Positions 33,496-53,976 of a stretch of 64,000 bases of DNA are shown here, in pieces. The translations under genes and the position numbers were made by a program. This DNA comes from Guillardia theta CCMP2712 (taxonomy: Eukaryota > Protista > Cryptophyta). A model generated the notes under the pieces. The model worked only from the letters and a program-made list of their open reading frames with translations, was not told the DNA's origin and did not search any database. The stretch covers positions 62,001-126,000 of the forward strand of contig NW_005434631.1 of NCBI RefSeq assembly GCF_000315625.1. The letters are read 5' to 3'. Each line of letters begins with the position of its first letter. Position 1 is the stretch's first letter.

Positions 33496-33637
33496 ATGTT
33501 TATAAAGATCTTATGCATTGGTGAGTTGAATGTTACAATATCAATATTATTCATTCCAAATTGCCCTCAAATTCACTGTTTCCAATCAAAAATGATTAGA
33601 ATTATTGTGTTTATATACAACAAGCAGCACATCAATT

Positions 33638-34670: not shown

Positions 34671-34748
34671 AACCTATTGTGTAAACATGATTGATTTTAT
34701 AATTTTTAGCCCAAAGTTTGAATACAAAAAGAATGATTGTACAGAATC

Positions 34749-36704
34749 TTATGCAAATTGGAAGCCAGTGTTGTTGTATAGGATTGCCTTGAAGAAATCA
34801 AAAATCATCTCTTTGACATTCTTATAACGATTTGATAATTCTAGAACAAAACCACATGTATGAGCTATCGGCAGAAATTGTCGATTATATATCCTGATGC
34901 TATAATTGCTTGTTGTATCATTGATAATATGATCCGCTGCTGTCCAGAATACCAATACTTTTTTAACGAAGTCCTTGAACCTTGGAACATATCTATCTGC
35001 CAATTGTTGATTCTGTGTGTCAAGGCCTTTCCAATCTTCTAATAATTCTTTGTACATTGAATCACTCATTGTTAGCATGCCCTTGAATATATTCTTTATG
35101 TGTTCAATATCAACATTTGAAGCATTGCCTGTGAATGACACCCTTCCAAGCATGTTCTTCATGGCTGCTCGTGTGTCTTGAACATACGAGAATATCCTGC
35201 TGATGTCCCCTATTTGGATTCCCTTTTCAATGAATATCCCATCGCTCTTGATCTGCATTCCACGCAATATGTTCCTGTACATTGACTTCAATTCATTGTA
35301 TCTTGTGGATGGATCATAATCAAAGACATCAAGTATTATATCATCAACCACCTTTTTTATGCTTTTCCTTTTCTTATTGAGAAGGCTAGCCATCTTCTTG
35401 TTGACACCTATGTCAAGCATGTAGAACACAAAGATGTCATAGTAAGAGATTATCCTGTTTCTAACATCACTCATCCATGATTCATGGCTCCTTGACTGTT
35501 GATACAATTGAGCATGCCTATTGCTGTCTTCATATATAGACATATCATCAACCTCGATGTTTGCTCTAATTCGTGACCTCATAGGCTTGTACATAAGACT
35601 TGCCACATCAATCAACGCTATGCGTTCAGGTATTCCATAATCATTCATCAAGAGGAATTTCATTACATAACCAATGAACCTGTAATGCTTTGCGTCAAGA
35701 TCTCTCTTGAAGATATACACATCCTTTGAGCCTGGAATTTTTTTCAGATACCTTTGAATGAATTGTTTAGACAGATTGGTAAGGAATTGACGGGTGAGAC
35801 CACCATGATCTAAGCCGTCACTGTTCAGATAGTTCACATTTCTTATCACAAATGGCCTTGTCCTTGATTCAAATTTTCCTAAGATATGATCAATCTCTTC
35901 TTCATCTCCAATGACTATAGGCAATTTGCGCTTGTTGTTGGTTTGTGCAAGGAATTCCTTGGTCTGTTTTATATCATATGCGTGCCTCTTTGTATTGTAG
36001 CACACATGCTTCATGAGATCACGCATGGGATCATCTTCAATAAATGATAGCTCTATGTCACAATCCTCGTCCTTGTAATCTGTGTTTCGGGATCTGCTCT
36101 TTAGTGAAGCAGAATTCACTGACAATGATTTTGATGACACATTATTCGAACCTGATCGATCCAAACGAGGGTTGCGATGATGGGAGCGAGGTGTATTATT
36201 AGAGCTTCTACTAGAAACATTGGCAGCATTCAATTGTGTTACTATATCTTCTTCTGTCATGCCATTGTTATTTTGAATTTGACGCAATACATAAGCCGCA
36301 TTGCGTGTCATCCTATCGATCATGTCAAAATCTAAGGTTGTTGGATCATCTGTTTGTAAAATTCTAACATCAAAGAAGAGTTTTATAATATGTTTCACTG
36401 CAGGAAATCTTAGGATCATATCTAGGTGTCTGATATTCGTAACTCTGGTGAATAAAAAGTTGAAGATATGACTATCAAGCCTAATCAGGTCTGCATCTTC
36501 ATTATTCCTTCCATGATTGATTTCATTTATATCAAACATTAACAAATTCATCATGTAATTGTTGTCTCTCATGGTGAGCCATGCTTCAACAACCACTTCA
36601 TCTAGACGAATAATTGTAGCTATGTCTTGTGCTCCAATGAGATTGATGTTGCTGCGTTGCAATCTGAAATAATGCAGATTTCGATTGTATATGTTTTGTT
36701 CCAT
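34749..36704 (-). CDS. HECT-domain E3 ubiquitin ligase-like protein
   Basis: VNYLNSDGLDHGGLTRQFL (cf. GxDxGGLxREFF), YRFIGYVM, LVFWTA, and catalytic LPIAHTC...LEL...Y...AI...GF at the C-terminus. Confidence 0.85.
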   Translation of the reverse strand: MEQNIYNRNLHYFRLQRSNINLIGAQDIATIIRLDEVVVEAWLTMRDNNYMMNLLMFDINEINHGRNNEDADLIRLDSHIFNFLFTRVTNIRHLDMILRFPAVKHIIKLFFDVRILQTDDPTTLDFDMIDRMTRNAAYVLRQIQNNNGMTEEDIVTQLNAANVSSRSSNNTPRSHHRNPRLDRSGSNNVSSKSLSVNSASLKSRSRNTDYKDEDCDIELSFIEDDPMRDLMKHVCYNTKRHAYDIKQTKEFLAQTNNKRKLPIVIGDEEEIDHILGKFESRTRPFVIRNVNYLNSDGLDHGGLTRQFLTNLSKQFIQRYLKKIPGSKDVYIFKRDLDAKHYRFIGYVMKFLLMNDYGIPERIALIDVASLMYKPMRSRIRANIEVDDMSIYEDSNRHAQLYQQSRSHESWMSDVRNRIISYYDIFVFYMLDIGVNKKMASLLNKKRKSIKKVVDDIILDVFDYDPSTRYNELKSMYRNILRGMQIKSDGIFIEKGIQIGDISRIFSYVQDTRAAMKNMLGRVSFTGNASNVDIEHIKNIFKGMLTMSDSMYKELLEDWKGLDTQNQQLADRYVPRFKDFVKKVLVFWTAADHIINDTTSNYSIRIYNRQFLPIAHTCGFVLELSNRYKNVKEMIFDFFKAILYNNTGFQFA

Positions 36705-36783
36705 GTTGTTTGTTATACAATCATATAGTTTTATGATTTGACTGTTTCATAATCCTCACTATTTTATGCAATTACAGATATAA

Positions 36784-37011
36784 ATGGATGTTTCCTATAT
36801 TCAAAAGCTAATCCAACCTAGAACGCTGTCCGCGAGGTCATCATCTCCCACCTCGCAGGACATTGAAGATGTTCTCAGGCTCTTACAACACAACAAGGAA
36901 TTCTACACGCAGTTGTGTAACGATCGCACAATGTTGCGACAATTTGCTTCAGATAATCATATCAATGAGAAGAAGCTCCTTAAATTCTCGAAGTACATCG
37001 ATTTGCTGTGA
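36784..37011 (+). CDS. Small hypothetical protein
   Basis: ATG-initiated 75-aa ORF divergent from the HECT gene. Confidence 0.45.
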   Translation: MDVSYIQKLIQPRTLSARSSSPTSQDIEDVLRLLQHNKEFYTQLCNDRTMLRQFASDNHINEKKLLKFSKYIDLL

Positions 37012-37450
37012 TCCATCAAAGAATCTATAATGCTGCGCAGAAAGAAGAACATAGAGAGGCTTAACCTGCTTGATCTTCCTGATAATGTATTGGAAACAAT
37101 CATTGATAAGTATAAGGCCCTCTTCTGTGAGCATCAATTGGTCCTCAAGAGGTGGATTTATGGATCCAATGCAGAGTTTCAGAATGAGCAATGAAGCGTA
37201 GAGGTAGTGCAGATTACACTTCTTCCTGTCGACCCTCTGTAAAAGCCCCATTGATATTTGCGAATACATCATACCAAAAAGATATCATTGATATGTATGG
37301 TGAGAGGCTCAACAAGAACTTCTTGTTCCGTTAGCAGCTCAACAAATGACTGTCCATCGTGAAGTAAAACATCAAGATCGATGTGTCCCAGCTCATATTG
37401 CAAAATCTTGATGACCTCCTTGTTATCTTCCCTAGGGTACAGGTAAAGCA

Positions 37451-39991
37451 TCATGAACTCCCATGACCGAGCGATCGGATCATGTTCTTCCTGTCCGCGT
37501 TCAACCTCCATGTGATCATCTTTGTCCCCACCGACCCCATTCCTGTGTCTCCAATCCAGTGATTGAATACGTATACCAAAGCGACAAACATGCGTTTCAA
37601 CTGTTTTAGCCCATCTTTCACCCACAATGCGTCGCAGGGGTCCCTCTGTAATATGAATTTGAAAAGATCAAGCAGCGGATCGTTCAAGGCTTCAGAGTCC
37701 ATATGCTGGACAGGGTTAAGTACTTGTTTGTCCCTATGCATCTTCTGGATTTCGGGGTCGATTACATCCCAATCACCCTTGACACATAGTCTGAATCCCA
37801 CACGAGCCATTTCCTCATCAATGAATTTGTTGATCTCCTGAACAGCTTTGGCGTACACTGTAGAGCCTGAGTTTGCATTGCGTGTGCGTGCTTTCTCAAC
37901 CAATACAAAGCCTCTTTCTATTGCCTGATCCACATCGGTTTCATGAAGTGGAGGTGGCGATTGTATCTGACTTCCCCAGTCCTTGAGCACCTCTCTGATG
38001 AATCCACCTGCTTCCCCATCTTTCCGTTTGACCATGTCTGCAAAGTATGCAGCAGTCATTACAAGAGCCTTAAAGATGGTCGTCTTGTTGCCCAAGTATG
38101 GATGCCTGTTCAAGGTGATGAAGGACAGCTTGAGTTTTAGTATTTCACATTTGTTGACTACGTTGTCACTTGAATTTTGTTCTGGTTCCCATTCCAATGT
38201 CGGAGATCCAAAGTACCGAAGTCTGTGTGTGTCGGAAGTAAAGTCAACGTTTCTATCAAAATCTGTTATCTCTGCAGAAGCTGCTTTAGCCAAAGCACTC
38301 GACATTGTCTTCTCATTATCGTCAACAGGCTTGTAGCCTTTTTGCACAGTCATGTTGAAAACATCACAAGCTGCGAGTATGGTGTCTTGATCATAGTTCA
38401 TCAACTGGTCAATAATCTTCATCTCCTTTGACAACCATCTGTCATATCCACTGTATGACTCTTCATCTTCAAAAATACTACGAAGCACACGATCCAACTG
38501 TTCATTGCTGCTGTTAATCCTTGGTCTCAATTTGCTTTTTGTGTTGAGAGGATGATCCTGTTCTTGCATCTCATTGTTCTCTTTACGCTTCTTCTGTCTC
38601 TTGGGGAAATTGTTTGCTCTAGCCCTAGGTGCATCAATGTGTATCAACTCAATTTCGTCAAACTTGTCAATGCAATGTTGAAAGACCAGATTGTACATCT
38701 TTTGCATTCTTTCAATGAAGTATGGTGTTGGTCGATAGTCTCTTGTCGCCAAATGGTCCAGGGTCCTTTCTATATCATCGGTTGTGAATCCTTGGTCTGG
38801 CAAAGGGTATTCTCTTGAGAAGAGGAGAGTCGTGGGGTGTGGATACAGATCAGGCTTCGTGCCACCGTCACCATACACGGCACTGTCGAACAGATGGTCG
38901 TTTTTCTCAAAAGATTTGCAGTAGACGTATAGATCTTGCCGTTTCTCAATCTCCGTGTAGACACGCTCGAACACCTCATTCCCCAGCAAACTCCTGATAT
39001 GGCTCAAGACCATGTCTTTTCTCTTCTTTGGATCACAACTTCTGAATCGGATAAATGAGTATTTGGGCGAGAACATCATAATCCGAGTTCCCTTTCCTCC
39101 AGTAAAATATGCAAATGTCAAAGCATTGGGATCCAGCTGCCCTAAGCGTGCCATGATCTCGTTTGTGATGAGTGAAACGGTTGCAAACCCTTTCTTTGCA
39201 GCATCTATTTCCGCGTCTGATAGAAGGTGCTTCATACCGCATACGTACTGTTTCACTGCGGTTTGAACATTGATACCTCCTTGGTCAGGATGGTCAGAAA
39301 GCCAATGAGAGTCAACATCAACATCGAAGAGTGTTACCCAGGCAACATTTTCGGACTCATCCTTTAATCTCTGGAATGTGATAGTGTTGTACAGTGCTAT
39401 TCTTGTATTTTCATAGAAATGTTCGAGAAACGTTTGTTCTTTTGTGTGTATAGCCAGTAAATACTCCTTTTGGAACTTCTTATCCCACTGTGCATCATTC
39501 TTGTTCAATCTTGTCATTTGTTTGATCTCATCGTCACGTAGAGCTTGATAACTTTCACTTTGAAGTGATTTGGTATCCTCTATTAAGTGTTGTTGCACAA
39601 TAGCAGCAGGTACGATCAAGGTGGTATTCGTGTACGGCTGATAGGAGAGACTGCTCGATCCCGAAGGAGGATAGATTCTCACCTTGATGAATACCTGACC
39701 ATTACTTGGAAGACTTCCAGAATCAGGGATCGACAAACCCCTCAGATGGTGAATATTTCTCATCTTGGCATTGCCAAGATCGTTTTCGTCACTATCGGTC
39801 ACTTTCCGCTTTTTCTTGTCTGGTTCGCCATCCGATGGCATGTCAGATTCACCACCATACTCCCTTCCGTTTCGTGGTTTCATGAGGAGAGATTTTCCTC
39901 TTTTGTGGTCCTGTTGAGGGATACTTATATACTCAATTCTTTCAAAATCACGAATACATATATCCACGGTTGGGATCCCACTCCTGTACAA
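37451..39991 (-). CDS. Large protein with a divergent AEP primase-like core
   Basis: LFDVDVD (DxD), AYFTGGKGTRI (sGxKGxH-like, His replaced by Arg), LFDSAVY (motif III-like). First ATG at 39883; NLS-like PDKKKRK. Confidence 0.55.
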   Translation of the reverse strand: MYRSGIPTVDICIRDFERIEYISIPQQDHKRGKSLLMKPRNGREYGGESDMPSDGEPDKKKRKVTDSDENDLGNAKMRNIHHLRGLSIPDSGSLPSNGQVFIKVRIYPPSGSSSLSYQPYTNTTLIVPAAIVQQHLIEDTKSLQSESYQALRDDEIKQMTRLNKNDAQWDKKFQKEYLLAIHTKEQTFLEHFYENTRIALYNTITFQRLKDESENVAWVTLFDVDVDSHWLSDHPDQGGINVQTAVKQYVCGMKHLLSDAEIDAAKKGFATVSLITNEIMARLGQLDPNALTFAYFTGGKGTRIMMFSPKYSFIRFRSCDPKKRKDMVLSHIRSLLGNEVFERVYTEIEKRQDLYVYCKSFEKNDHLFDSAVYGDGGTKPDLYPHPTTLLFSREYPLPDQGFTTDDIERTLDHLATRDYRPTPYFIERMQKMYNLVFQHCIDKFDEIELIHIDAPRARANNFPKRQKKRKENNEMQEQDHPLNTKSKLRPRINSSNEQLDRVLRSIFEDEESYSGYDRWLSKEMKIIDQLMNYDQDTILAACDVFNMTVQKGYKPVDDNEKTMSSALAKAASAEITDFDRNVDFTSDTHRLRYFGSPTLEWEPEQNSSDNVVNKCEILKLKLSFITLNRHPYLGNKTTIFKALVMTAAYFADMVKRKDGEAGGFIREVLKDWGSQIQSPPPLHETDVDQAIERGFVLVEKARTRNANSGSTVYAKAVQEINKFIDEEMARVGFRLCVKGDWDVIDPEIQKMHRDKQVLNPVQHMDSEALNDPLLDLFKFILQRDPCDALWVKDGLKQLKRMFVALVYVFNHWIGDTGMGSVGTKMITWRLNADRKNMIRSLGHGSS

Positions 39992-40095
39992 GATCGATCG
40001 ATCCCCTTGGTAGAGTTTGGGGGGGGGAATTCATTCAGCACTTTGTTTTCTTTTTTTCATTCCATCCGGACCCCCACCCCTCAATTCCTCTAGAT

Positions 40096-40400
40096 TCGGT
40101 GGGTAGTAGAGTACACCCCACCCTCTCCTGCCAGCTATCGAATCGGTGGGTAGTAGAGTACACCCCACCCTCTCCTGTATGATCAGCTATCGAATCGGTG
40201 GGTAGTAGAGTACACCCCACCCTCTCCTGTATGATCAGCTATCGAATCGGTGGGTAGTAGAGTACACCCCACCCTCTCCTGTATGATCAGCTATCGAATC
40301 GGTGGGTAGTAGAGTACACCCCACCCTCTCCTGTATGATCAGCTATCGAATCGGTGGGTAGTAGAGTACACCCCACCCTCTCCTGTATCATCAGCACCCC
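40096..40400. repeat. Tandem array of six palindromic units, 52-bp period
   Basis: Unit TCGGTGGGTAGTAGAGTACACCCCACCCTCTCCTGTATGATCAGCTATCGAA starts at 40096 (47-bp variant), 40143, 40195, 40247, 40299 and 40351. A degenerate copy lies at about 40873-40955. Confidence 0.95.
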
Positions 40401-41132
40401 ACCCCAACTACTGCAAACTCTAAATGAATGGCTTTGAGCTTCTCTCCTGCCACTGACATTCTGCTGAAATGTTTGCTTCCCGCGCGGCATGCATTTTTAA
40501 ACAGCTATGAGTCCAATAGAGGCCTTGATTGACGTGAAAGGTTATCGTAAAAATTTTGATTCATCTTTCGTTTTGCTGCGACCATTAAGCAAGCTTGCGA
40601 GTCGAACGATCAGGTTATCTGTACACATTCGGCGAGGGGATCTTATCGGAAAGAAAAATCAACGTCTATTGCCTCAGCTGGTAAAGGAAATCACAAGTGA
40701 TAACGGTGGCCAAAAGGTTGAACTGGTCTTTCATCTTGAAAGAAAGAGTTACACCGAATGCCGTCTGCATCTGGCAACTTTTTCAGTTGACTATCTCATT
40801 TATCCAATAGAGCTTATGATTGCATTCTTTCAATGAAGTATGGTTTTGGTACTTGTGTTGCCACACGAAAAAGGTATACCCCACCCTGTGCTGTATCACC
40901 AGGTATCGATTCGGTGGGTAGTTTAGTACACCCACCCCAACTACTGCAAACTCTAGTTGCAACCGCCTCATATTACAGTACCGCCTCATATTACAGTTTT
41001 AGTACAGGGTGAAACTAATACTCTCGACGCCCATTACAACAAAAGGAACGACGGCTGAAGAGAAAGACAAGTTTGTATCTTGATTTTTCATCAACGAAGA
41101 CGAGGAAATATGAGGCGCAAGAGAAAGTGGGA

Positions 41133-41230
41133 ATGATTGCAATTTGCTCCTGAGACAGCAGTGACACTGAAGGACATCGATATGATTGCAATTTGCTCCT
41201 GGAACAGCAGTGACACTGAAGGACATCGAT
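41133..41230. repeat. 49-bp tandem duplication
   Basis: ATGATTGCAATTTGCTCCTG..ACAGCAGTGACACTGAAGGACATCGAT twice (41133, 41182). Confidence 0.9.
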
Positions 41231-41350
41231 ACTCGACTAGTATCTATTCACGGATTACTCATAGCAAGCTACACAGTTGCAACCCGCTTGCTGGTCCATG
41301 CAAGGGGTCACAACGGACGATCAGTGGCGGGGTTCGTGTCGTCGAGCTTC

Positions 41351-42121
41351 TCACTGCGAGATCGGTTCCTTGTCGAGCTGCTGATTCTTCATCAGTCTTG
41401 CCCTCCGGTCTGAGTACCAGGAATAGGCGTACTTGCCTGTCCTGTAGCTCCCGTACGCCGCCGTACCGACGACAGCCGCACCGACGCATGCTACAGCAGC
41501 TGTTGTGGACAGTCCCAACATGCCGGTTGCTCCAATGCTCTGAAGCGTCGCTACCATTCCCCCTGATGCCATGGACGCGACTCCTCCTCCAGAAGCGACG
41601 GCTGAGGCTGACATCATAGACGCTGCCGTGCTGCCTGCGGCGATGCCAGTGCTGGTGAAACCAATCGCTTGCACTCCAGCCACAGCAGCGGCAGGAGCAA
41701 GCATCGCACCGCCCAGAGCCCCTCCTCCTGCAGCTGCCGCTCCTGATGAGATCCAAGGGCCTCCACGTCTAGCACTCTCAGTTGCCTCCTTTAGATCTGT
41801 GTCTTCCCACTGCACGATCCATTCAGCCGGAAGCTCCTCCACCCGTCTCAGCACCGCCTCCCCGTCAGACCCATCCAGACAAGTCAGAGGTTTCTTCTGA
41901 TCAGCGTCAGCATAGAAGATCGGTCCGTTGTCAAGCTTCTGATCCTTGGCAAAAACGCGAACAAACTGTTGGTCTTTGACCTTGAATGCAAACGAACCAT
42001 CGACCTCAACATTGAAGGACTCCATCGCTTCCTCTGGCAGCGGAACAGTATCCTCAGCAGCAGCAGATGTTTCTGGTGGGTTCATCGCACTTTCACCTTT
42101 GTCGGTGCTCGTTGGCGCCAT
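41351..42121 (-). CDS. IFI6/IFI27-like (Ifi-6-16 family) membrane protein
   Basis: [30 protein letters not shown]...[11 protein letters not shown] is the family signature. GC-rich, unlike its neighbours; first ATG at 42121. Confidence 0.85.
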
Positions 42122-42605
42122 GCCTTCCTGTTGCGGCTTTTCTTTACTCAAAGTTAAGTTAAAAATCAGTACGAGGCCCGTGACCGGGCCGGCGGGCCGC
42201 GGCCGGGGCCCAGTTCAGTTCAAGTAGTCAAGCCTAGTCATAAGTTAGGTTAAAAATCAGTACGAGTTTCACTGAAAGTCAGTAGTGAGTTTACAGTACT
42301 GAAAGAGTAGAGGAGGCTTGTCGGACCCTGAAAAGGCTGTCGCACATCATGGCATGCCATAGTGGCGAGAAGTGATTAGGTATACCCCCAAACTGCGGCG
42401 AGAAGAGAAAAGACAGCGAGAACCGACCCTCATCATCCTGCCCACTGATGTCCCGGCCGGGCCGCGAGAGTCCCGGCGCCGGTCCGCCGGTGACCGTCGG
42501 AGTCCCGAGTCCGGTACGGTCGAGTCCCGGTCCCCGGGCCGGGCCCTCACTAGTCCTTTATTTTACTCTAAGTTAAGTTAAAATGGAGGAATCTGGCTTT
42601 TCGTA

Positions 42606-43034
42606 ATGCAGCGACAAAATGCAGCTGCAGCATTCATGGATGACGGTGATGCACAAGAGACAGAGAAAAATGATAAAAGTGGTAAAACAATGGGATGGCT
42701 TGCTACAGCAGCAGCTGGACTAGGAATCATAGCTGGGGCCGCCATCCTTTTGACTCAAAAAGAAAGCTGTCCAACGGAGGAGATGGTTGTTCGCAAGATC
42801 AGAACTGTGACTGACGAGTTTCGTCGTCGGAATAAAAATTATCCAAAAGATGAGGGTGATTTTAGCTATTTTATTTGGAGGTACAAGAAGTTGAAACAAG
42901 AGGACAAGGAACGCTGTGTCAATTGGAGAAATAAAATCGCTCATCAAAACTGGAGCGAACTGAAAGATGAGGAGAAACGCGAGTTTTACGATATTCTCTG
43001 CCGTATTGAGACTGATTTGTCTCCATGGCAGTAA
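42606..43034 (+). CDS. Hypothetical single-TM protein
   Basis: Hydrophobic WLATAAAGLGIIAGAAILL followed by a charged domain. Confidence 0.55.
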   Translation: MQRQNAAAAFMDDGDAQETEKNDKSGKTMGWLATAAAGLGIIAGAAILLTQKESCPTEEMVVRKIRTVTDEFRRRNKNYPKDEGDFSYFIWRYKKLKQEDKERCVNWRNKIAHQNWSELKDEEKREFYDILCRIETDLSPWQ

Positions 43035-43879
43035 TAAGGGCACTTGCAATGAGGTGGTATTGTGTGAATTACTCTGCTTATTTCCCGATTATTGTTGCGG
43101 AAACTTTTAATACTTGAATGAAGAGGAGCTTTTAGATCTCCCGCTGATGAATACCAGTTGTAACACCATTTTGGCTCAGAACACAAAATTTGTGATCTTT
43201 GGCATGTCTTGTATGTCGAGCACCACCACTTGCGCCCATTACCTATGCAGAATCATAGCAATGGGACCAGATTTGATTGGGATCATTACATCAAACCGCG
43301 CAATTGCGAACTCGGGCGAGAGCATATTGAAAGGATTGTAGAAGAAATAAACATGCACCTGGATAGTGTCCAGAGTGAACTATCAAGGCGCCCCTGAGAC
43401 TCAATCCAACTATGTGTTGCTTGAGATCAGTCATCTTTCAGTCGCTTGACTCAATCTTCATTCTGCAACCAATGGCTTGCGATGAAGGATCAGGTTCATA
43501 TCCCAGATCCTGTAGTGCTATGCTATCTCTGTATGAACCTGTTCGGCAGTCCATATTCAAAGATTGCAGCTCTCACTGCCTCACTGTATGCATCCAAATT
43601 GGCAGTTCTTTTGAATTCTCTTGTGATAGCCGAAGTGGCGCATCTTGGAAGAATTGCAATGCTTCTAATGCCTTCTATGTGAAAGGCTACATGAGGCAGA
43701 GTCCCATAAGATACACAAGCAAACATTCAAAACATCAGCAACCAATCAGCTCTTTGAATATGCCAGCAACAGAGAGATTAGGTTCACACCCGAGCACTTC
43801 TTTAGCAATAACCCATACTCATTCGACTTGCTGCTCAAACTTGAATATGGATTGTCTTATGATACTCAAGACATAGCTT

Positions 43880-44719
43880 ATGCCCGATCGCATCAAATGG
43901 GCTCTTCTCACTTATCCAGGCATGGACATGGATTGGAAAGGCCTATCCCTCAATCCCATGGTGAGGCATCTATCTAAATCATTCTTAGAGAGGCATCATG
44001 CAAACCTATCACCGCCTCACTTGTCACAGAACAAGAACGCTGTCACGATACTTGAGATGTATCCTGTTCTTATTGATTGGAAGGCCTTGTCCACAAACTG
44101 CAACGCAATGCATCTGCTTGAGAGCAATCCTGATAAGATTGATTGGGAGGAGTTGCAAGAGAACCCTAGCCATAGAGCATTTCAGATGGTCCTAGAAAGG
44201 AACTCAGGTCATACATCTTTAGATATTACATTTTACATGGCTCACAGGGATGGCCCTTATCTGGTCGATAAATTCTTCAATGAACTACGCTCTGATGAAT
44301 TTGAAACAAGGGTGAGAAGGGAATTCCGAGATGCAATCCAAGGAGGGAATATCAATGGCAATAACGTTGTGCCCTACTATCTCCTCTCATTGAACTTCAG
44401 CAGCCATCCTAAGCTGGTTGATCTATATGAATACCTTTATAGATTGGCGCGGCGTGTTGCTAAAGAGGTGTGCCAAGAGGCCAATGACACAACCCAACTT
44501 GAACGCTTCTATGGGTTTATAGATGAAAAGATGCCCTGGCGCAAGATATGCAGCAATCCTGGGTGCCTGGTGAAGACATCTATAACCATCGATATACACA
44601 CAGAACTCTCAAGGATTGACCCTAAGATGTCTGGATTTATTGAGAACGATAGGAGAGAGCTCTCTGATACAAGTATAAGATCGTTGTTTCCTGATTGGAA
44701 AAATCTGAAAGCACCATAA
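43880..44719 (+). CDS. IDWxxLSxN repeat protein (second copy of the type)
   Basis: MDWKGLSLNP, IDWKALSTN, IDWEELQENP. Confidence 0.7.
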   Translation: MPDRIKWALLTYPGMDMDWKGLSLNPMVRHLSKSFLERHHANLSPPHLSQNKNAVTILEMYPVLIDWKALSTNCNAMHLLESNPDKIDWEELQENPSHRAFQMVLERNSGHTSLDITFYMAHRDGPYLVDKFFNELRSDEFETRVRREFRDAIQGGNINGNNVVPYYLLSLNFSSHPKLVDLYEYLYRLARRVAKEVCQEANDTTQLERFYGFIDEKMPWRKICSNPGCLVKTSITIDIHTELSRIDPKMSGFIENDRRELSDTSIRSLFPDWKNLKAP

Positions 44720-44771
44720 AAACTAGCAACACCTCAAGTACAATAATTATTCCCTAAAATAAAGGCAGGAT

Positions 44772-47141
44772 ATGGATTTTTATTTAAAGAGCCTATTGAA
44801 ACCATTTAATTATGACAAATTCAAGGACAATCTGAGAAAGGATTTATTTCCAAATGATCTTCCATTATACTTTACCGAAGCGATCAATATGAACGATGAA
44901 TTGTTCTTAAATATCATCAAATATGTATGTCAAGAGATAAATGATCTCCATGATGTGCATTATAAAAAAGAGCTGAAGTTGATATACAAATTCTTCTTGT
45001 GCTTCTTTTTGGTAAATATCAATGAATTTAAAGGATTGTTAAAGAAGGGAGAAATTGAGTATCTGAGCATTAGTGTACAAGAGATATTAACAATAAATCC
45101 CGATTTTGATAAGACGTGCAAATTGCCATATGAAACGAATACATTTGATAAAAAAAGCATTATCCATCCAGAACCATGGTATCTATCTGGAATAGATGAG
45201 GTAAAACACAATACGGCTGTAGCATTGATCCAAAAATTGATTAGGCATTTCTCATTCAATACCAACAATGTCAAGAAACTCATAGTCCAATATGGAGATG
45301 TGATGCACAAAACAGGATACAACACTAAAACCGTTACCAATATCAGAAACAAGCTTGACTTTGTTATAGGACTGTGTGACAAGAGAGATGGAATAATGCT
45401 GACAAGATACCTTGCTGCGTATACCGAAATATACATGGAGGGGATCAAAATAAACAAGAGGAAGAATGATTTAAAGAAATTGTTACAGGGCCCAGCTCCA
45501 ATAGATTTTAGGGCTGTGTTTAGATTATACAACCGTATAAAGAAATTGCAGCAAGAGATTTTTGATATATATGAAGAGAACGATGATCTGAATATGGATC
45601 CAGAAGAAGACAGGAAGATATCGAGAACATTGGATGCATTGTTGTATTCAGATGAATTAAAAGCTTTTTTAAAATCACACAAAGATGTCAATATTGAATT
45701 GGATGATGAGGAGCATATAAGGCTTCTTAGATCCTTGACAGAGAGCAGGAAATCATCATCCTCCAGATCATCGAGAAGAAATTCTTCCAATGAGAGATAC
45801 AGCTGGATGGACAACCTCAAATCTTCGTCATCCTCACCATCCGCCATATTCAGCATGCAATCTAAGCTGTCGAGGCTTGTGAGCAGTGCATACAAGAAGG
45901 AGAGCAGCAACAATGCAAGGTTCTCGAAGGCATTCTTTAAGGTGCTCAAGGAGGCCATGCTCCTAAGGCAGAATGCTCTATCTAAGAAGGGGAAGAATAG
46001 GACTGTCACATTCTTTCAGACAAACACACATCGTGTGGATGATGCAATACCTGGAATTCATGAACAAAAGTATGTAGAATCTATACAGAAACTAGAGGTG
46101 ATGCTGAATGATAAGAATGAACCACCAATGTTCTTGAGGTTTTACTTCCCCGATCTATATCAGATGGTTCTACAGGATCCAACAAAGACTGTATATGAGA
46201 ATGAGAACAAGAGAGAATTCCTCCTGATTCAAAAGAGGATTATAGATGAGTTGGATGAGAGAGACAAGCTTGTGTTGAAGGCTTGGACCTATAATGGGAA
46301 CAATGCCATCAATAGATTGTTGACATACCTGTTTGATACAAAATGCATCAAGATGTTTAAATTGGAACTGAAGCAAGAAGACATAGATGGTGCCATAGCC
46401 TATTTCTGCAATATAAAGATATTGAAAAGGCTTGGATACTTTGAGGGAATGGATGATCCAATAGAGGCCTTGAAAGCAAACAACTACAGCCAACTGCAAG
46501 AGATCATGACATCATACATATCTGATCTGTACAGGATAGCAGATGTTGTAAAGAGCAGAACACTACAGGTATTTGGAGAGGATGCAATAGAGAGAGCAAA
46601 TATATATGTTTTCAGAGGACAGACAGACAAGAACAAATGTCAAAAGAAAGATTATGAGTGCATCCTTTCAACATCACTAAATTTTTATAAGGCATTGTTC
46701 TTTCTAGATACAGCAAAACCAGAACCAAACAGAGAGGGGACCATAAATGGCAATATGTACATATACAGATTGACCAAGGACATGCCATTCATATATATAA
46801 TGCCCATAAGCATTTATCCATCCGAGCAGGAGATTTTATTGCTCCCAAAGGACAAGGATAAATTCTTAAACAAGTTGAAAACACCTATGATAAAACCAAG
46901 CTATAAATCATTATCAGCATCTTCCAGTTCAGATAGCGCAATGGAAAACATGCTCATGAATAGTATAAAAGAGAAAGAAGACATCATAAGAAATAGAAAT
47001 ATACCATTGTTAAGATGCATTGTGCATGAACATTATGATAACAATGCAATGAGGACCATTGAAACAGCAAATTATAAATTTCAGGATAACATGAATATCA
47101 GGTTGAGCATTTGCTGGCACAATTCGAACAGTTTTCCATAA
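44772..47141 (+). CDS. Large protein with C-terminal VIP2/Alt-like mono-ADP-ribosyltransferase domain
   Basis: LKAWTYNGNNAINRLL (cf. YT...INxxL), YVFRGQ (R), ILSTSLN (STS), SEQEILL (ExE). Confidence 0.72.
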   Translation: MDFYLKSLLKPFNYDKFKDNLRKDLFPNDLPLYFTEAINMNDELFLNIIKYVCQEINDLHDVHYKKELKLIYKFFLCFFLVNINEFKGLLKKGEIEYLSISVQEILTINPDFDKTCKLPYETNTFDKKSIIHPEPWYLSGIDEVKHNTAVALIQKLIRHFSFNTNNVKKLIVQYGDVMHKTGYNTKTVTNIRNKLDFVIGLCDKRDGIMLTRYLAAYTEIYMEGIKINKRKNDLKKLLQGPAPIDFRAVFRLYNRIKKLQQEIFDIYEENDDLNMDPEEDRKISRTLDALLYSDELKAFLKSHKDVNIELDDEEHIRLLRSLTESRKSSSSRSSRRNSSNERYSWMDNLKSSSSSPSAIFSMQSKLSRLVSSAYKKESSNNARFSKAFFKVLKEAMLLRQNALSKKGKNRTVTFFQTNTHRVDDAIPGIHEQKYVESIQKLEVMLNDKNEPPMFLRFYFPDLYQMVLQDPTKTVYENENKREFLLIQKRIIDELDERDKLVLKAWTYNGNNAINRLLTYLFDTKCIKMFKLELKQEDIDGAIAYFCNIKILKRLGYFEGMDDPIEALKANNYSQLQEIMTSYISDLYRIADVVKSRTLQVFGEDAIERANIYVFRGQTDKNKCQKKDYECILSTSLNFYKALFFLDTAKPEPNREGTINGNMYIYRLTKDMPFIYIMPISIYPSEQEILLLPKDKDKFLNKLKTPMIKPSYKSLSASSSSDSAMENMLMNSIKEKEDIIRNRNIPLLRCIVHEHYDNNAMRTIETANYKFQDNMNIRLSICWHNSNSFP

Positions 47142-47361
47142 ATTTGTGAGAAATACAATTGATCAGCCTCAGAAGATATGTAGTTTATAGTCTGTACATA
47201 ACGAGCGTTGCACAGATATATTGTGTTGCTGTTCTCGCCAAATCCACCGAAAATATCTCCCATTATTCTAAAAGTGTAGAATATATGCAATAGATTTTTG
47301 ATCAAACATGCATAAAGATATATATGAAATGACATAGATTGATCCATATTTTATTGATTTT

Positions 47362-48093
47362 TCAATAACAGACTTTACAATAATACCTTGTACTATCATA
47401 TTCATCTTCTTTCAAACAAAATATACAAAATAACCTATCACAGCCATAACAATAATGCTTGGGATCGTCATAGTCAAATAGAAATCTACAACTGTGGCAT
47501 GCCGGTCTCGCTTCTACATAGCGCGTGAAGATATGTTCTACAAGGTCTTCTGGAAACAACCTACAATCCTTGAGAGCTCTCTCAAATGATATCATTGCAT
47601 CATTGTACATATCCCATCGTGTTCCATAGTACCATGTGCAATGAGAAGAACAGAGTGGATACTCACAACACGTATCGCATAGCCTAGCAACGCAATCTTT
47701 CTCAAGATAATCCTCTCCACATGCACACTTGTTCTTATGCTGGATACACTCGTTGTCATTGCAACAAGCAATGCACAGCCTGTGCTTGCATCTCTCATCG
47801 GACATCTTTCCACAAGAGCATATGCTTAGATTGAGATGGATTGGACATGCTCTCTTCTTACAACAACTCTTGCAACAACCCGATATGCAACCATCATTGT
47901 ATCTATATATAGCACATTGAGAGCATGTGTTTGGCAACCCCTTGTATATAGATTGCACTCTCTTTAGCTTTCTTCGACATGGCAGGACCACCTCTGAGTT
48001 GCTATGCACAACACATGCCATATCTTTACAACACATCCTACAACTCAATGTGAAGCACATATAATTGGTTTTGTTGCATTCGCATCTATACAT
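47362..48093 (-). CDS. Cysteine-rich repeat protein (CxC...CxxCC...CxxH) with Zn-finger-like C-terminus
   Basis: Four repeats such as CSCGKMSDERCKHRLCIACCNDNECIQH; LFPEDLVEHIF is F-box-like. Confidence 0.65.
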   Translation of the reverse strand: MYRCECNKTNYMCFTLSCRMCCKDMACVVHSNSEVVLPCRRKLKRVQSIYKGLPNTCSQCAIYRYNDGCISGCCKSCCKKRACPIHLNLSICSCGKMSDERCKHRLCIACCNDNECIQHKNKCACGEDYLEKDCVARLCDTCCEYPLCSSHCTWYYGTRWDMYNDAMISFERALKDCRLFPEDLVEHIFTRYVEARPACHSCRFLFDYDDPKHYCYGCDRLFCIFCLKEDEYDSTRYYCKVCY

Positions 48094-48320
48094 CTATGTT
48101 AGGTTTTACTGTGAAGGCTGGGAGTGGGTCAGTGAAAAATGGCATCAATTATTATTATGGTTCATCTCTTTATGTGCCAATGAATGAATGGATGTGATAT
48201 CTATGTCAGGTTAAGGCGTTGTTAAAAAATGCTTCTAATAGATACAAGTCTATTTGAGATAAAACTATCAGCTCAGGATGTAAAAATGATAACATAAAAT
48301 TGAAAGGAAACAACAAAGCA

Positions 48321-49400
48321 ATGCTGTCGTTTGAGGAGAGGATAAGGAGGTATGTCAAGAAGAGCAAGAACAAGACCATCAAGAAAGATACATTGGATTT
48401 CATATCTGAAATATTGAAGAGATTTCTGGATAGATTGATTGACAGGAGCTTGCAGATTATGGAAGAGTGCAGAAGAAAATCATTCAAGGGACGGGTTATC
48501 TGTAATGGGACTGTATACATGATCCCAACATTCCTAATAGAGTTTGGTGTATCTCAGCATACCTGTGATGTAACAGCATCCTATGAGCGCATGTTGGAAA
48601 AGGGACTTACAGAACTTGAGGCACTGAAGAGGGCAAGAGGGATGGCATTCAATGTTGACATGTACAAGGAAATAATAGAGAGCAAAGCCAAGAATAATAT
48701 CAGAGTGAAGATGGATGCCTACATTGTTCTTGATGCTACAATGAAGTATGCTATAAACACGCTGTTCGATGAGATACAGAGTGGATGCAGCAGATCCGAT
48801 GTGAGCGATGCCATCATCAGAGAGATGCTCTTGAGATACATCTTGGGCCCATTCATAGATCTAAAGCCAACACCATACAAGAGAACAAGAATAGTGAGTG
48901 AGTATGACATATTGGATGATAAGAGCCAAGATCAGCTGATGAAGAATAATCACCATGATATGATTAGATTGGGCAGAGGGACCCATGCAATGATAAAAGA
49001 GAATGTTGTGGCATACATGGATGAGGTCATGAGAGCAGTATTGGATGTGAGCGAGGGGAAAGAGGTCCTGGGTGTAGAGGATTGCATATCCGGGATCAAT
49101 CAGAAGAACATACGCATAGAGATGGTAAATGATATGAGAATTGTTATAGAGAATGCAAAGAAGCACAAATATGGTTATACTCCAGAATCATATGAGGAAT
49201 TGAAGTCATTTACAGATGAGATCCTGAAGACATATGGATGTGAGGTCATATTGGATGAGGAGGCAAAATGGTTGATTTATTGTATCTACAAGGAGTATCT
49301 GTTCAGATTGTTTGAAGCCATAACGGATATAGTGTTGATGGAGAATTTGGATGTTGCAAGGAGAAAAGATGTGATGTTTGTCATAGAATGCCAAAAATAA
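48321..49400 (+). CDS. Divergent single-chain histone quadruplet H2B-H2A-H4-H3
   Basis: Four consecutive histone-fold-like segments alignable by eye to H2B, H2A, H4 and H3 (details in findings). ATG at 48321. Confidence 0.72.
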   Translation: MLSFEERIRRYVKKSKNKTIKKDTLDFISEILKRFLDRLIDRSLQIMEECRRKSFKGRVICNGTVYMIPTFLIEFGVSQHTCDVTASYERMLEKGLTELEALKRARGMAFNVDMYKEIIESKAKNNIRVKMDAYIVLDATMKYAINTLFDEIQSGCSRSDVSDAIIREMLLRYILGPFIDLKPTPYKRTRIVSEYDILDDKSQDQLMKNNHHDMIRLGRGTHAMIKENVVAYMDEVMRAVLDVSEGKEVLGVEDCISGINQKNIRIEMVNDMRIVIENAKKHKYGYTPESYEELKSFTDEILKTYGCEVILDEEAKWLIYCIYKEYLFRLFEAITDIVLMENLDVARRKDVMFVIECQK

Positions 49401-49523
49401 ATAAATATGCATATATATCAAAGATATTTTTTATATTTTCATAATGTTTTGCAGCAAGCAATACATGGTGTTCATCATATCAAAAATGATATAAACATAT
49501 ATGGTTATTAGGCATAAAGAAAT

Positions 49524-49991
49524 ATGGCACAAAATAGCGCAACGTATTATGAAAAATTCATGGATATGTCTAATCAGATATATGAACTAAAGGACAAGCT
49601 ATCTGATTTAGAATACAAGAACCTGAATGAAACATTGTCTGAACTAAGAACCTGTCAAAAGAATGCTCAATTGCATATCTTCAGATATTATCATCAATAC
49701 TTTGTTCCTTACACACAATACAATGATGATGGATGTCTTGAATTGATAAACAACCTAAAAATAGATGAGGAGTGTATTGTATGTACAATCGATGAAGAGA
49801 TACTTAGACATCCATTGAATAGATTGATGCATAAATTGCATGTCTTCAAGCAGAGTGCTAAGATACCACATCTGGAATATCTACATTCTGATAAGAACAT
49901 TGAATTTATTGATACCATCCAAAAAGGTAAATCAAGCGATATGGTGGAATATGTTAACATCATCCCTATTTCACTTGAACCATTGAGATAA
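49524..49991 (+). CDS. Hypothetical protein
   Basis: ATG ORF with the upstream AAAAATGA motif. Confidence 0.6.
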   Translation: MAQNSATYYEKFMDMSNQIYELKDKLSDLEYKNLNETLSELRTCQKNAQLHIFRYYHQYFVPYTQYNDDGCLELINNLKIDEECIVCTIDEEILRHPLNRLMHKLHVFKQSAKIPHLEYLHSDKNIEFIDTIQKGKSSDMVEYVNIIPISLEPLR

Positions 49992-50030
49992 AAATGATCA
50001 TCAATATTTCTTAGAGATAGACCAAACAAG

Positions 50031-50390
50031 ATGAATGCCATTACAGATATAATCGGTACAATCTATCTCAAGTTTATACAGAATTGCGTGCCTGTTGCTA
50101 AGTTGCTCGCTATACTGTTCAATCTTCCGACATGGGTGTATTACCTATTCCTTGGATTGTTCGTGTTATCATTGTGCACACCACCTAATGATAACAAGAA
50201 GACAACAAGACACCATAAATCAACCAAGATTGATCCTAAGGCAGACACAGAAGATAATCTATCCATGGAACACGAGATCAACCAGCTTAAACAACACATC
50301 GATAATCTTAATCGGGACATGTATAGGACCAAGAGATACGTATTAAAGCTTTACGAGAAATCTATGCATATGAGCATCGTTGATTACTAG
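50031..50390 (+). CDS. Hypothetical membrane protein with coiled coil
   Basis: Hydrophobic N-terminal half, then LSMEHEINQLKQHIDNLNRD. Confidence 0.6.
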   Translation: MNAITDIIGTIYLKFIQNCVPVAKLLAILFNLPTWVYYLFLGLFVLSLCTPPNDNKKTTRHHKSTKIDPKADTEDNLSMEHEINQLKQHIDNLNRDMYRTKRYVLKLYEKSMHMSIVDY

Positions 50391-50456
50391 ATCTGTTTAG
50401 ATATATAAAAATACATGTTGAAAATGAATTTCTGTTTTTTTATTTCAATTACTCAT

Positions 50457-50888
50457 ATGGAAGAGTTTATTGAAATATTTGATGCAATCAACCTAGAATC
50501 AACCATAATAAACCCTGTAAAGGACTTGATATTTGATCAATACATCAAGCTATGCGAGAAAGATCTAATAGACACCCATTTTGATTGTGAGTTGTGTGAG
50601 AGCAGGTGTCCTAAAGAGACAAGGTTCCAAAACTTTGATATATGCAATGATTGTGTTGCTGAATATGTTTATTGGAGATGTTCTCAATGTGATTATGAAT
50701 TCAAGTTGGATGATATTGCTTGTATATTGTATGTGAATGAGAAGAACATATATCATAACATGGCATATTGCCATGAATGTGCAGATGACCTACAATTCTT
50801 CATATGCGATCATTGCCATATGCGTTTGCATGTATGTAAAGAGTTTGATGACAATTGTTGTGATCACTGTTATTTTCAGAGAGAATAG
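50457..50888 (+). CDS. CxxC-rich Zn-binding protein
   Basis: Six CxxC pairs (CELC, CNDC, CSQC, CHEC, CDHC twice). Confidence 0.6.
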   Translation: MEEFIEIFDAINLESTIINPVKDLIFDQYIKLCEKDLIDTHFDCELCESRCPKETRFQNFDICNDCVAEYVYWRCSQCDYEFKLDDIACILYVNEKNIYHNMAYCHECADDLQFFICDHCHMRLHVCKEFDDNCCDHCYFQRE

Positions 50889-51099
50889 ATTGTATATTCA
50901 TAACTTTACATATGCTTCAAGATCAACTTTTTTAGCTCTCTGTGCTCTAATGAATTTCATTGAATATAACATTATCCTGTATAAATCTTTTATCACACTA
51001 CCATATATATTTATGTATGTTGCATTTGCACAATTTTAAGCAAAAAATGAATTGGGTATCTCTTTTTATATCATGATTACGACACACGAACAGGCTTAA

Positions 51100-52641
51100 A
51101 TGTTGAGAAAACTTTTTCAAAGGAATACAAAAGAAGATAATAAGGTTTCGGTAAAGACAGAAGAAAACACAAAAGAAGATAATAAGGTTTCGATGAAGAC
51201 AGAAGGCAGTCAAAACGAGGCTGAACAGGTTATAAGACTAAAATACAATAAACTAAAAAGAAAGAGTTCTTCAAAACCTGAAACAAGAAAAGAGAAAATG
51301 CCTACAATCAAACACAATAACAGCTCAATGAAGAATGATAGATTGAAAGAAGAGGAGGAAGACTGGCATGTGGAAAAGAGAATCCGTGTGGCAAATCAGA
51401 AAAAGGAAACCGAATATCACAGAAAGATACATAAGATAAGAAATTCTCTTACAAGACAACAATTTGTAGAAGAAAACATTAGAAAATATTCTGTGAAGGC
51501 TATCCATAGAGAAGATGAAACAAGTGTTATTGTTGTAAAATCTAATCACACAGGCACCAAGCACAAAATCAAACTGTCTGATGGGATTGGAATTCCATCT
51601 ATCAGTCTCTCAAGGCTCTGCAAGATGGATAAGTCGGGTGTCTTTGATTGCTTGATCTGTAACAACAGCATGTCAAATCAACCCAATAAAACAAATGATG
51701 AGGTTCATCTTGTCATGGGTAAAGAGAACATCTCCTACTTTTCCAATGATGATGACGCTTCGCTTCATGTAGGCAACATTGTAAGATCTGTGGATCATCT
51801 TGAGAAGGATCGATTTGTCTTTGATAGCACATGTGGGATCGATATGACAAAGAGAATTGATGAGAGAGAGGTCCCTGTAAGCCTGCAAAACATCCTTCAA
51901 TATTGCAAACACTTTGTCAATAGCAATATTGCTCAACAGACCTTATCCTTCTCCGTGTATGAGTCCTATATGTCTGTCAAGAAAGAGTTCAAGAGCAGGA
52001 CTGAGAGGCATATCACATTCCCTATGATGTTCATTGATGTTAAAACAAATGATGATCAACAATTCAACTTCAAGGCCCTCTTATGGAAAAAGAAGAAGAA
52101 CTCACGATATCTTGGTGCCAAGGAGGGAAGCCTTGAGGTCATCAACATGCCCTCGTATCATGAACGCAATCCATGCCTATCTGCCTTCTACTTCCCATTG
52201 CCTATGTTCTCATTCTTCCTTTCAAGAGGATTTCTTATTGACTTTGTTTGGGAGGATGAATTGCCACCATATAAAGGACGTATATATAAGGAGGATCGTT
52301 ATGATGATGAGGAGATTGCATACAGCATCAAATCAATCCGAAATGTGGTATTTCATTCTCCTAGGAGCATCCTAGAGAAAGAAGCAATCATGGTCCTTGT
52401 TGATTGGGAGATCCCTGAACACAATGAGGGTGTCTTTTCAGAGGAACCCAATGATAAGTCATATCTTTCATGGATAAGCATCTCTAATCTTGTATCTTAT
52501 AACTGTCTTATGCAATATTTCAAATTTAGAGCTCCATTTATGAGAGATCCCATCAGCAAGAATGTTTATCCTAAGGATTTCACAGGGCTCATCAATCCAA
52601 CAACCACTGATGAGGAGGACTATCTTTCTAGGTTCAATTAG
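51100..52641 (+). CDS. Hypothetical protein with C-terminal chromodomain-like segment
   Basis: YSIKSI...VLVDW...SWISISNL..LMQYF resembles the chromo pattern YxVExI...YLVKW...TWEPxxNL...LIxxF. Confidence 0.5.
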   Translation: MLRKLFQRNTKEDNKVSVKTEENTKEDNKVSMKTEGSQNEAEQVIRLKYNKLKRKSSSKPETRKEKMPTIKHNNSSMKNDRLKEEEEDWHVEKRIRVANQKKETEYHRKIHKIRNSLTRQQFVEENIRKYSVKAIHREDETSVIVVKSNHTGTKHKIKLSDGIGIPSISLSRLCKMDKSGVFDCLICNNSMSNQPNKTNDEVHLVMGKENISYFSNDDDASLHVGNIVRSVDHLEKDRFVFDSTCGIDMTKRIDEREVPVSLQNILQYCKHFVNSNIAQQTLSFSVYESYMSVKKEFKSRTERHITFPMMFIDVKTNDDQQFNFKALLWKKKKNSRYLGAKEGSLEVINMPSYHERNPCLSAFYFPLPMFSFFLSRGFLIDFVWEDELPPYKGRIYKEDRYDDEEIAYSIKSIRNVVFHSPRSILEKEAIMVLVDWEIPEHNEGVFSEEPNDKSYLSWISISNLVSYNCLMQYFKFRAPFMRDPISKNVYPKDFTGLINPTTTDEEDYLSRFN

Positions 52642-53063
52642 TTCTTCCAATCACAACACAATTGATTATTTTTATATTTCTATCATCAATCAATACTATG
52701 GTTTGGCATGGTTTTATTGAATTATAAACGGAGTATCATTCAAGATGTTATCTGGTGCAGTTGTTCTTATTGCATCCTGAAAAATATTGTCATGTTTTGT
52801 GCCTGTTTCTGAACCTTTATCATTTGAAGTCTTTCACATACAATGGATCAATTAGATTTTTTATAAACATTTGTAGGATCATCTGATGTCTGCAATGGCA
52901 TTTCTCACTGTCGATATCCCATTTGCATATCTCTTTGTCCTTTTCACATGTCGATACTTCCTTGCCTTGATTTTATATATTGCATCATAAAAATGCAAGG
53001 TATAAAAAATTATAAACATGAAATGATCAATCATTAACCGCTGTTCCTAATACACTAAGGCAA

Positions 53064-53534
53064 ATGTCATCATATAATGTTGAATTAGATGAGATAGACC
53101 CAGGATTGTCACTTGATGATGGAATAGTGATACCAGTGGCAATACGGCCATCACTACGTTCTGGTCGATCATACTCAGATCTGTTTGCAGAGCTGGAACC
53201 GAACAATAAAAGGAGGAAAACAATTGGCAGTGGCTCTTTGAGCTCCTTTGAAGCTTTCATTAGACATCCAAGACCAGATGAACCAATTACAAAGCAAAAG
53301 ATTGCGAGGAAAGGACAGCAGATATGGAAGGACCTATATAAAAAGATGCAGAGAGAATTCAATGAAGCAGTATCCAATATTGAAACAACAACCAAGCAAC
53401 AGCTTATAAGAGACAATGTAAAATCAATCTTTCATAAAAACATGAAGAACAAGAACAGATGTATTTATATGTACCTAGAGATGTGCGAGATAAATGGATT
53501 GATAGACATTGTTAGAGATGATAGCAAGCCTTAG
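53064..53534 (+). CDS. Hypothetical protein, last ORF of the AT-rich block
   Basis: ATG ORF with NLS-like NKRRK. Confidence 0.55.
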   Translation: MSSYNVELDEIDPGLSLDDGIVIPVAIRPSLRSGRSYSDLFAELEPNNKRRKTIGSGSLSSFEAFIRHPRPDEPITKQKIARKGQQIWKDLYKKMQREFNEAVSNIETTTKQQLIRDNVKSIFHKNMKNKNRCIYMYLEMCEINGLIDIVRDDSKP

Positions 53535-53976
53535 ACCTTCCATACCCCTCCAAATCATGTTATATGAACCGGTATAATATAACCCCCACCCCCTCCATGG
53601 GACACTCACTCCTCAGTTCATGCCTTTCCGCAGATGCCGGCAGACCAAATCTAAAACTCATTTTATTATATTGAGTAAAAATACAGATAAAAGTTGTCAA
53701 CGCCGATCAATGGTCAATCAGCAAGTGATGGGCGAGGGCTGAAGATGGAGGGGGATGGAGTAGAAAACAATGCCGAGGAGGGGGAGATGAAGGGGAAGCG
53801 ATGGGGCAATGAGAAGATACCTCTGGAGATTGATGCGGCGACTTTGACTCTTGTGAGCAGGCGTTTTAACGGTTCCACCAGGCAAGGAAAGATTGCTGAT
53901 AACGAGTATCATCAAGAAGGACTCCGGGAAGTTCAATACGTCGCTGGTCCGGGTGATTGGCGGCAGGATTGGGAGC

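Follow-up and report, generated by a model that had tools for sequence, protein, structure and literature searches.

A near-neutral candidate histone quadruplet gene in a silent virus-like segment of a eukaryotic nuclear contig

The window, a stretch of 64,000 nucleotides that was analysed as a whole, holds a 359-aa intronless ORF (P0001; Table 1), and the question raised by this locus was whether a single chain encodes four core histones and what such a protein would do. Fused histone quadruplets occur in Nucleocytoviricota, as the preliminary description of the locus had stated. The accessible text of Irwin and Richards 2024 (PMC11222145) gives 13 quadruplets among 258 viral histones, with types HQA, HQB and HQC, and reports that published quadruplets dimerise and protect approximately 148 bp in E. 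coli. In the accessible text of PMC9145170, the mimivirus-related MAG ERX552270.89 has a quadruplet in the order H2B-H2A-H4-H3, and LCMAC101 and LCMAC102 are given H2B-H2A-H3-H4 quadruplets. The earlier division of P0001 into four histone-fold segments held when the ORF was read through, when profiles were built with its relatives and when its structure was modelled with AF2.

Table 1. Features of the quadruplet locus and its surroundings (positions in the window)
Feature	Position	Strand	Basis
Histone quadruplet ORF (P0001), ATG to stop, 359 aa, no internal stop	48321..49400	+	translation, relatives, profile comparison, AF2, structural alignment
Segment 1, H2B-like fold with alphaC helix, aa 1-95, net +7, conserved basic positions kept 7/10	48321..48605	+	
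Segment 2, H2A-like fold, aa 96-188, short alphaN, shortened L2 loop, alphaC, net +2, conserved basic positions kept 0/3	48606..48884	+	
Segment 3, H4-like fold, aa 189-268, net -5, conserved basic positions kept 5/17	48885..49124	+	
Segment 4, fourth histone fold, likely H3, aa 269-359, net -5, conserved basic positions kept 2/13 (8 of 18 H3 references used, C-terminal alignment unreliable)	49125..49397	+	
Virus-like segment holding P0001, AT-rich (36.7% GC), 85% coding, CpG-poor, untranscribed	43800..53600		
Second virus-like segment, AT-rich (37.3% GC)	13600..40000		EsV-1-7 repeats, exonuclease, ParB, T5orf172, helicase, CoiA-like, HECT-like ORFs
GC-rich, transcribed, apparently multicopy island between the virus-like segments	40000..43682		approximately 10x flank depth in run X2
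AAAAATGA early-promoter octamer, 39 nt upstream of P0001 ATG	48282..48289	+	
AAAATTGA Mimivirus/CroV early-promoter octamer	48296..48303	+	
Second histone gene, tail-less H2B-H2A doublet, 177 aa, pI 9.2	34137..34670	+	PDB, H2A profile

P0001 alone matched the Pfam Histone family at E = 3e-4 with 21.5 bits, below the cut-off of 26.4. The N-half alone matched it at E = 7e-5 over two stretches and the C-half alone matched no histone family in Pfam. Comparison with PDB sequences showed matches to H2B-H2A.Z chimeras at E 1.2, the identity with solved H2A-H2B chains was 10-16%, and the H3 singlet profile reached E 0.21 with P0001 alone. P0001 therefore falls outside the canonical eukaryotic histones as judged by basic folds, N-terminal tails, high identity and the Pfam cut-off. 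Two other matches were rejected because the structure models showed all-helical histone folds: Pfam Amidase_2 on the C-half (E 5.5e-6, 27.2 bits, above the cut-off of 26), where both models agreed, and a serine recombinase in the PDB (E 0.06-0.11).

An exhaustive HMMER search with P0001 produced six matches at E ≤0.001, self included. Two unnamed Logan proteins, P0002 (404 aa, E 1e-16) and P0003 (434 aa, E 8e-12), aligned over residues 3-340 of P0001 at 24-25% identity with all four segments in register in both. Pfam gave no histone family for either of them at E ≤1, and standard annotation therefore overlooks the family. P0005 (GUITHDRAFT_103575), a hypothetical protein of 259 aa from Guillardia theta (E 7e-8), spans P0001 residues 129-338. 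It is an H2A-H4-H3-like family member without H2B, and may be a truncated gene model within an endogenous viral block. P0006 was clearly a doublet of H2B and H2A (Pfam E 3e-16); it was excluded from the family alignment of four members and placed among the H2B/H2A references, which are mildly circular because it came from the P0001 search. P0004 (E 1e-8) was dropped as a repeat-driven false match (SpaA/SdrD repeats). A word-based search of 5.8 billion proteins returned P0001 itself, located on a contig of 577 kb, as its single match, the word-based search with the family profile returned P0001 and P0002 only, and no relatives were found in IMG/VR or in JGI metagenome contigs. In a tree of the H2B and H2A folds, P0001-3 grouped together with a support of 97/92; the branches are long, and the tree was not used for origins.

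Reference profiles were made from IMG/VR histones (8 H2B, 8 H2A, 6 H4 and 18 H3) and each segment of the four-member alignment was compared with each reference by local profile-profile comparison against 30 column shuffles. This test of each quarter, which had been proposed in the preliminary description, produced matches to histone profiles above shuffles for all four segments. Segment 1 scored 37.1 with H2B (z 11.5), segment 2 scored 35.2 with H2A (z 10.3) and segment 3 scored 24.7 with H4 (z 8.7), each exceeding 30/30 shuffles. Segment 4 scored 21.5 with H2B (z 6.1) and 18.7 with H3 (z 5.1), both again above 30/30 shuffles, and in global mode H2B was preferred (17.2 vs 4.7-8.3). The family profile searched against 177,635 PDB sequences had one match at E ≤10, histone H4 7d69_B (E 0.18, positions 221-267). 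Overall, P0001 very probably holds four histone folds, and the earlier labels H2B, H2A and H4 are very likely right for the first three. The fourth fold is probably H3: the helix layout and the structure match agree with that label, but the sequence leans slightly to H2B. In IMG/VR, an H2B-H2A-H3 triplet was also observed (L025, 1006-2170), apparently split over two overlapping ORFs.

AF2 run on the four-sequence alignment produced a model of P0001 with a pLDDT of 68.8 and a pTM of 0.58; a single-sequence AF2 model (pLDDT 33.5) was set aside. Helices were predicted at residues 4-16, 22-52, 59-67 and 70-93 (with alphaC) in the H2B segment, at 98-104, 113-122, 127-151, 158-167 and 169-178 in the H2A segment, where a linker replaces the H2A docking domain, and at 200-211, 219-242 and 252-261 in the H4 segment. 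In segment 4 helices were placed at 272-281, 288-304, 313-340 and 345-358, of which 272-281 is an additional, alphaN-like helix preceding alpha1, and alphaC is absent. According to the accessible text of PMC9145170, H3 has a helix preceding alpha1 and none past alpha3, unlike H2B, and the layout of segment 4 therefore favours H3 over H2B. Both halves of the predicted monomer superposed on solved histone pairs. Residues 2-180 aligned with a single-chain H2B-H2A (Z 14.3, rmsd 3.2 Å, 167 aligned) and residues 192-358 with residues 21-212 of 9cvt_D (Z 12.9, rmsd 3.2 Å, 151 aligned), a chain that we infer to be the H4-H3 doublet of Melbournevirus, since that particle contains just one further protein, of 168 residues. 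P0001 is thus predicted to fold as two intramolecular handshakes, H2B/H2A and H4/H3, both of which are present in the model.

An independent ESM Atlas model of P0001 showed the same two-half picture and ranked Nucleocytoviricota histone clusters first, with all cluster matches below the service's bar for family naming. A Foldseek search of the P0001 model against the PDB gave no match at E ≤0.001. In the viral structure library the top two matches were the Loki's Castle marseillevirus LCMAC101 and LCMAC102 histone proteins (555 and 336 aa; E 1.5e-4 and 8e-3) over 385-437 columns with 12% identity to P0001, at an rmsd of 17-21 Å which indicates that the arrangement of the P0001 halves is unmatched. 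The AF2 model is weak at residues 339-359 (pLDDT <50), the region of the H3-H3' surface. The histidine of the H3-H3' bundle, which we take to be H113 in canonical numbering, reads Met in P0001 in a gapless register set by eye.

The preliminary description had also noted that tails are missing and many basic residues lost, and the charge counts agree. P0001 has no tails, 58 K+R against 59 D+E, a net charge of about zero and a pI of 6.6; whole viral doublets and triplets had a pI of 9.0-10.6 in 6/7 cases and 7.5 in the seventh. Compared with the net charge of each P0001 fold (Table 1), the reference means were +7.4, +3.8, +9.3 and +7.2, with a span of +7 to +11 for H4 and +6 to +9 for H3. Hydrophobic core positions were retained at 20/26, 22/25, 18/26 and 20/33 in folds 1 to 4. 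Among the basic positions retained in the H4-like segment is the L1 arginine R216, a position that is R or K in 4/4 family members. The folds of P0002 and P0003 have a charge as low as those of P0001, and P0005 has a basic H4 fold (+7). Low charge is a trait of the family, and its presence in P0002 and P0003 indicates that the loss predates the insertion. These counts argue for DNA binding by P0001 that would be weak at best. The acidity of the H4-H3 half makes a normal nucleosome less likely; in known nucleosomes the central DNA is bound by the H3-H4 pair.

The endogenous, virus-like setting that had been proposed was supported. Both virus-like blocks are intronless and gene-dense with approximately 37% GC compared to approximately 50% GC in the flanks, and a repeat-protein family is common to both (E 2e-6). 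CpG o/e was 0.28-0.46 in the virus-like segment vs approximately 0.7 in the flanks, whose genes encode an axonemal inner-arm-type dynein heavy chain, a TTC21/IFT139-like protein, BTB and RCC1, a gene set of a flagellated eukaryote. The 3.7-kb island between the blocks is likely a multicopy element that was inserted later. The EsV-1-7 repeats (E 3e-144), an AaV-type promoter and the histone matches point to a Nucleocytoviricota origin, and the P0001 segment would derive from a giant virus. No giant-virus hallmark (capsid, polymerase or packaging ATPase) was found among the 36 ORFs scanned in the window, and the viral order is not fixed because the helicase neighbouring P0001 has no IMG/VR relative. 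Raw DNA reads of run X11, a ChIP library from an independent study, showed similar depth over 44.2-58.0 kb, across the right border, and pieces of run X2 had a depth of 3-4 on either side of 53.6 kb; no independent single contig bridging the 53.6 kb junction was seen. The read depth supports a virus-like block that is continuous with the host chromosome at host copy number.

RNA run X10, of which 6% was sampled from one condition with an apparent 3' bias, gave a mean depth of 0.05 over 43.6-53.8 kb vs 12 at a single-copy host gene at 55.0-55.6 kb. The three reads placed within 48150-49600 lie at the 3' end of P0001 or beyond it, leaving no depth over its coding body, and the neighbours are as intact and as silent as P0001. 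Since P0001 is silent in X10, its preservation is no sign of host use. The earlier statement that the gene is preserved intact is therefore right for the ORF, which has no stop, and for the promoter, but not as an indication of use by the host.

Relatives at approximately 85-92% identity were present in two freshwater metagenome runs, with at least two variants in run X6. Among the 40 differences listed, 36 were within the ORF, and 35 came from one contig over 48843-49212. Of the ORF differences listed 20/36 were at third positions and none produced a stop. Synonymous changes made up 18/34 of the changed codons among these differences against an expected fraction of 0.19 (p=1e-5), nearly all of them in the H4-H3 half. 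The differences listed gave a crude dN/dS of 0.21 against the 8% diverged freshwater relative, uncorrected for transition bias, which crudely suggests purifying selection on the P0001 gene. The synonymous excess may reflect selection in the virus prior to integration.

The octamer AAAAATGA is the early promoter of Aureococcus anophagefferens virus (AaV) and is one base from that of Mimivirus, according to the accessible text of PMC5917014. It was found at most 70 nt upstream of 6/24 virus-like ORFs, including both histone genes (34114-34121 for the doublet), and 0/5000 shuffles reached six; its window-wide count was near chance (9 vs 6.6 expected). The octamer AAAATTGA was unenriched in the whole window (8 found vs 5.9 expected). 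The distribution of AAAAATGA is a hint of early expression and of a donor from the Imitervirales. The second histone gene was missing from the preliminary description. It matched the PDB at E 0.003 and the H2A profile with 21.9 bits and had no Pfam histone match. The doublet is 12% identical to the front half of the quadruplet, the two genes lie 14 kb apart, and a search for longer relatives of the doublet found none.

P0001 resembles the Nucleocytoviricota quadruplets in having four core-histone folds in one chain with H2B-H2A first and in a published order. It differs from the published ones in lying below the Pfam cut-off, in being tail-less and near-neutral with short connectors, and in its place in a eukaryotic nuclear contig near a separate doublet. 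Its halves superpose on the Marseilleviridae H2B-H2A, variant H2B-H2A and H4-H3 doublets (7N8N, 9CVT) with Z of 12.1-13.2 for the front and 12.9 for the back, but in P0001 both doublets are fused. These doublets offer a precedent for the loss of canonical arginines and for weak wrapping: in the accessible reports, several minor-groove arginines are absent from Melbournevirus particles, whose surface is also more neutral, and yet 90-124 bp are wrapped. The Melbournevirus proteins were shown to be essential and virion-packaged. The back half of P0001 also matches double-histone-fold proteins that lack a nucleosomal role or are of archaeal type, namely the SOS histone domain (Z 10.2-11.1), Methanopyrus HMk (9.5) and DUF1931 (8.8). 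All of these have a lower Z than the viral doublet, and H4 is the identity that the family profile indicates for segment 3. The block itself resembles giant endogenous viral elements of Amoebidium (PMC11244446) and Euglena (PMC12455990) as an AT-rich, intronless, silent and CpG-poor viral block in a host chromosome. Unlike the P0001 block, the Amoebidium insertions are reported there to lack core histones, and the sole mention for Euglena in the accessible text is a bacterial-type histone-like protein. In the accessible text of literature outside subscription journals (including PMC12220804, PMC8357426, PMC12330702 and PMC13520046), and likewise of bioRxiv 2023.09.20.558576, 2024.12.06.627149 and 2025.01.15.633200, no description was found of an endogenous giant-virus quadruplet or of the Guillardia P0005. 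Viral quadruplets are already known, this order included, as is nucleosome formation by other quadruplets. New here are a near-neutral family below the Pfam cut-off, its acidic H4-H3 half, an early-type promoter motif, purifying selection as judged crudely against a freshwater relative, the Guillardia theta relative and a basic doublet 14 kb away.

The best explanation, with a probability of about 0.5, is that P0001 was a viral histone forming loose nucleosome-like particles and is now a silent passenger. In the likely giant-virus donor, P0001 would have been expressed early in infection, and its chains would have paired and wrapped viral DNA. Two chains would assemble as a pseudo-octamer through four-helix bundles of H3-H3' and H4-H2B, which is proposed by analogy since published quadruplets dimerise and Melbournevirus wraps 90-124 bp despite missing arginines. 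With most of the positive charge lost, the wrapping was likely loose, well under 147 bp and mostly by the basic H2B end, and it would keep the viral DNA organised yet readily opened. P0001 would have no role in the present host. The early promoter counts against a role in packaging, which a late promoter would fit better, and together with the acidic H4-H3 half it leaves room for a mimic that does not wrap DNA or for a particle of two components. A mimic is possible, if doubtful. An early, neutral chain would show surfaces shaped like H2A-H2B and H3-H4, and would sequester the histone chaperones of the host or pair with its histones, leading to looser host chromatin or to blocked silencing of incoming viral DNA. 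Retention of the fold with loss of charge throughout the family, the early-type promoter and the purifying selection suggested for the acidic half are consistent with it. However, the H2B fold of P0001 retains 7/10 basic positions, the R216 position holds R or K throughout the four-member family, the H4 fold of the Guillardia P0005 is basic, and a particle would need just such a retention of four folds paired as in nucleosomes. It can tentatively be proposed that a hidden lineage of giant-virus quadruplets kept the half-nucleosome shape, shed the DNA-binding charge and served as an early mimic sequestering host chaperones or destabilising nucleosomes, escaping HMM surveys and going unrecognised in protist genomes such as that of Guillardia theta; on that reading, the reported absence of histones from endogenous giant viruses may come from a failure to detect them.

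A quadruplet that works only with the basic doublet at 34137, or a half-nucleosome capped by it, with the doublet supplying the charge, is unlikely; in its favour are the AAAAATGA octamer upstream of both genes, the doublet pI of 9.2, the GC content and repeat-protein family shared by the two segments that the multicopy island splits, and, in the accessible text of PMC9145170, genomes that encode quadruplets plus doublets. Use as a domesticated histone variant in an unsampled life stage of the host is less probable still. P0001 is an intact gene in single copy that runs on into host DNA in the independent run X11, and a relative is annotated in the Guillardia theta genome, but the coding body has no X10 depth, equally intact neighbours are equally silent, and the gene has no intron and a viral-type promoter. 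Decay after integration, in which charge was lost by drift and the protein became functionless, is largely refuted. RNA silence and CpG depletion of the segment would suit a relic, but the frame and the promoter are intact, the crude dN/dS against the 8% diverged relative is low (0.21), and the low charge is shared by relatives of 22-24% identity and so predates the insertion. As a viral histone forming loose particles, P0001 would be a compact, tail-less, natural single-chain half-nucleosome, as predicted, and a direct test of the minimal charge for nucleosome-like wrapping. It links a quadruplet to a culturable eukaryotic host instead of a host-less metagenome bin, and the quadruplet and the doublet here share one promoter motif. 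Viral histone repeats are evidence on the origin of the nucleosome, and the published surveys use HMMs that miss the P0001 family.

Other features of the window were also observed. A 789-aa ORF (44772-47141, +) showed by eye a C-terminal R / STS / ExE-like ADP-ribosyltransferase pattern (Pfam ADPrib_exo_Tox E 0.035) and has a counterpart of approximately 90% identity in run X6. A cysteine-rich ORF (47362-48093, -), divergent from the quadruplet, ends in a FYVE-like finger (E 0.0075), and the chromodomain-like look of the ORF at 51100-52641 was unsupported. In the island at 40000-43682, tandem repeats of 52 bp span 40053-40447, a gene of the Ifi-6-16 family lies at 41351-42121, and there is a poly(A) site at 40850. 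Directly upstream of the Ifi-6-16 gene, a motif of approximately 35 bp (42140-42176) had a depth of more than 20,000 in X2 and X6 DNA contigs; this very high-copy genomic motif may be a promoter, a leader relic or a small repeat. In the second virus-like segment, two large ORFs (37451-39883 and 23573-27184, both -) resemble archaeo-eukaryotic primases by eye with no Pfam primase match, and in the latter the primase-like part is joined with a helicase in one ORF (Pfam ResIII E 7e-5). Duplicated inverted repeats with 27-bp arms (21915-21989 and 23357-23431) lie on either side of the T5orf172 gene. Finally, four short basic paralogous ORFs with YQ(K/R)xYQ repeats were found at 17125-17523, 27282-27686, 30505-30921 and 31138-31422 (all +), two of which have near-identical upstream regions of 98 bp.
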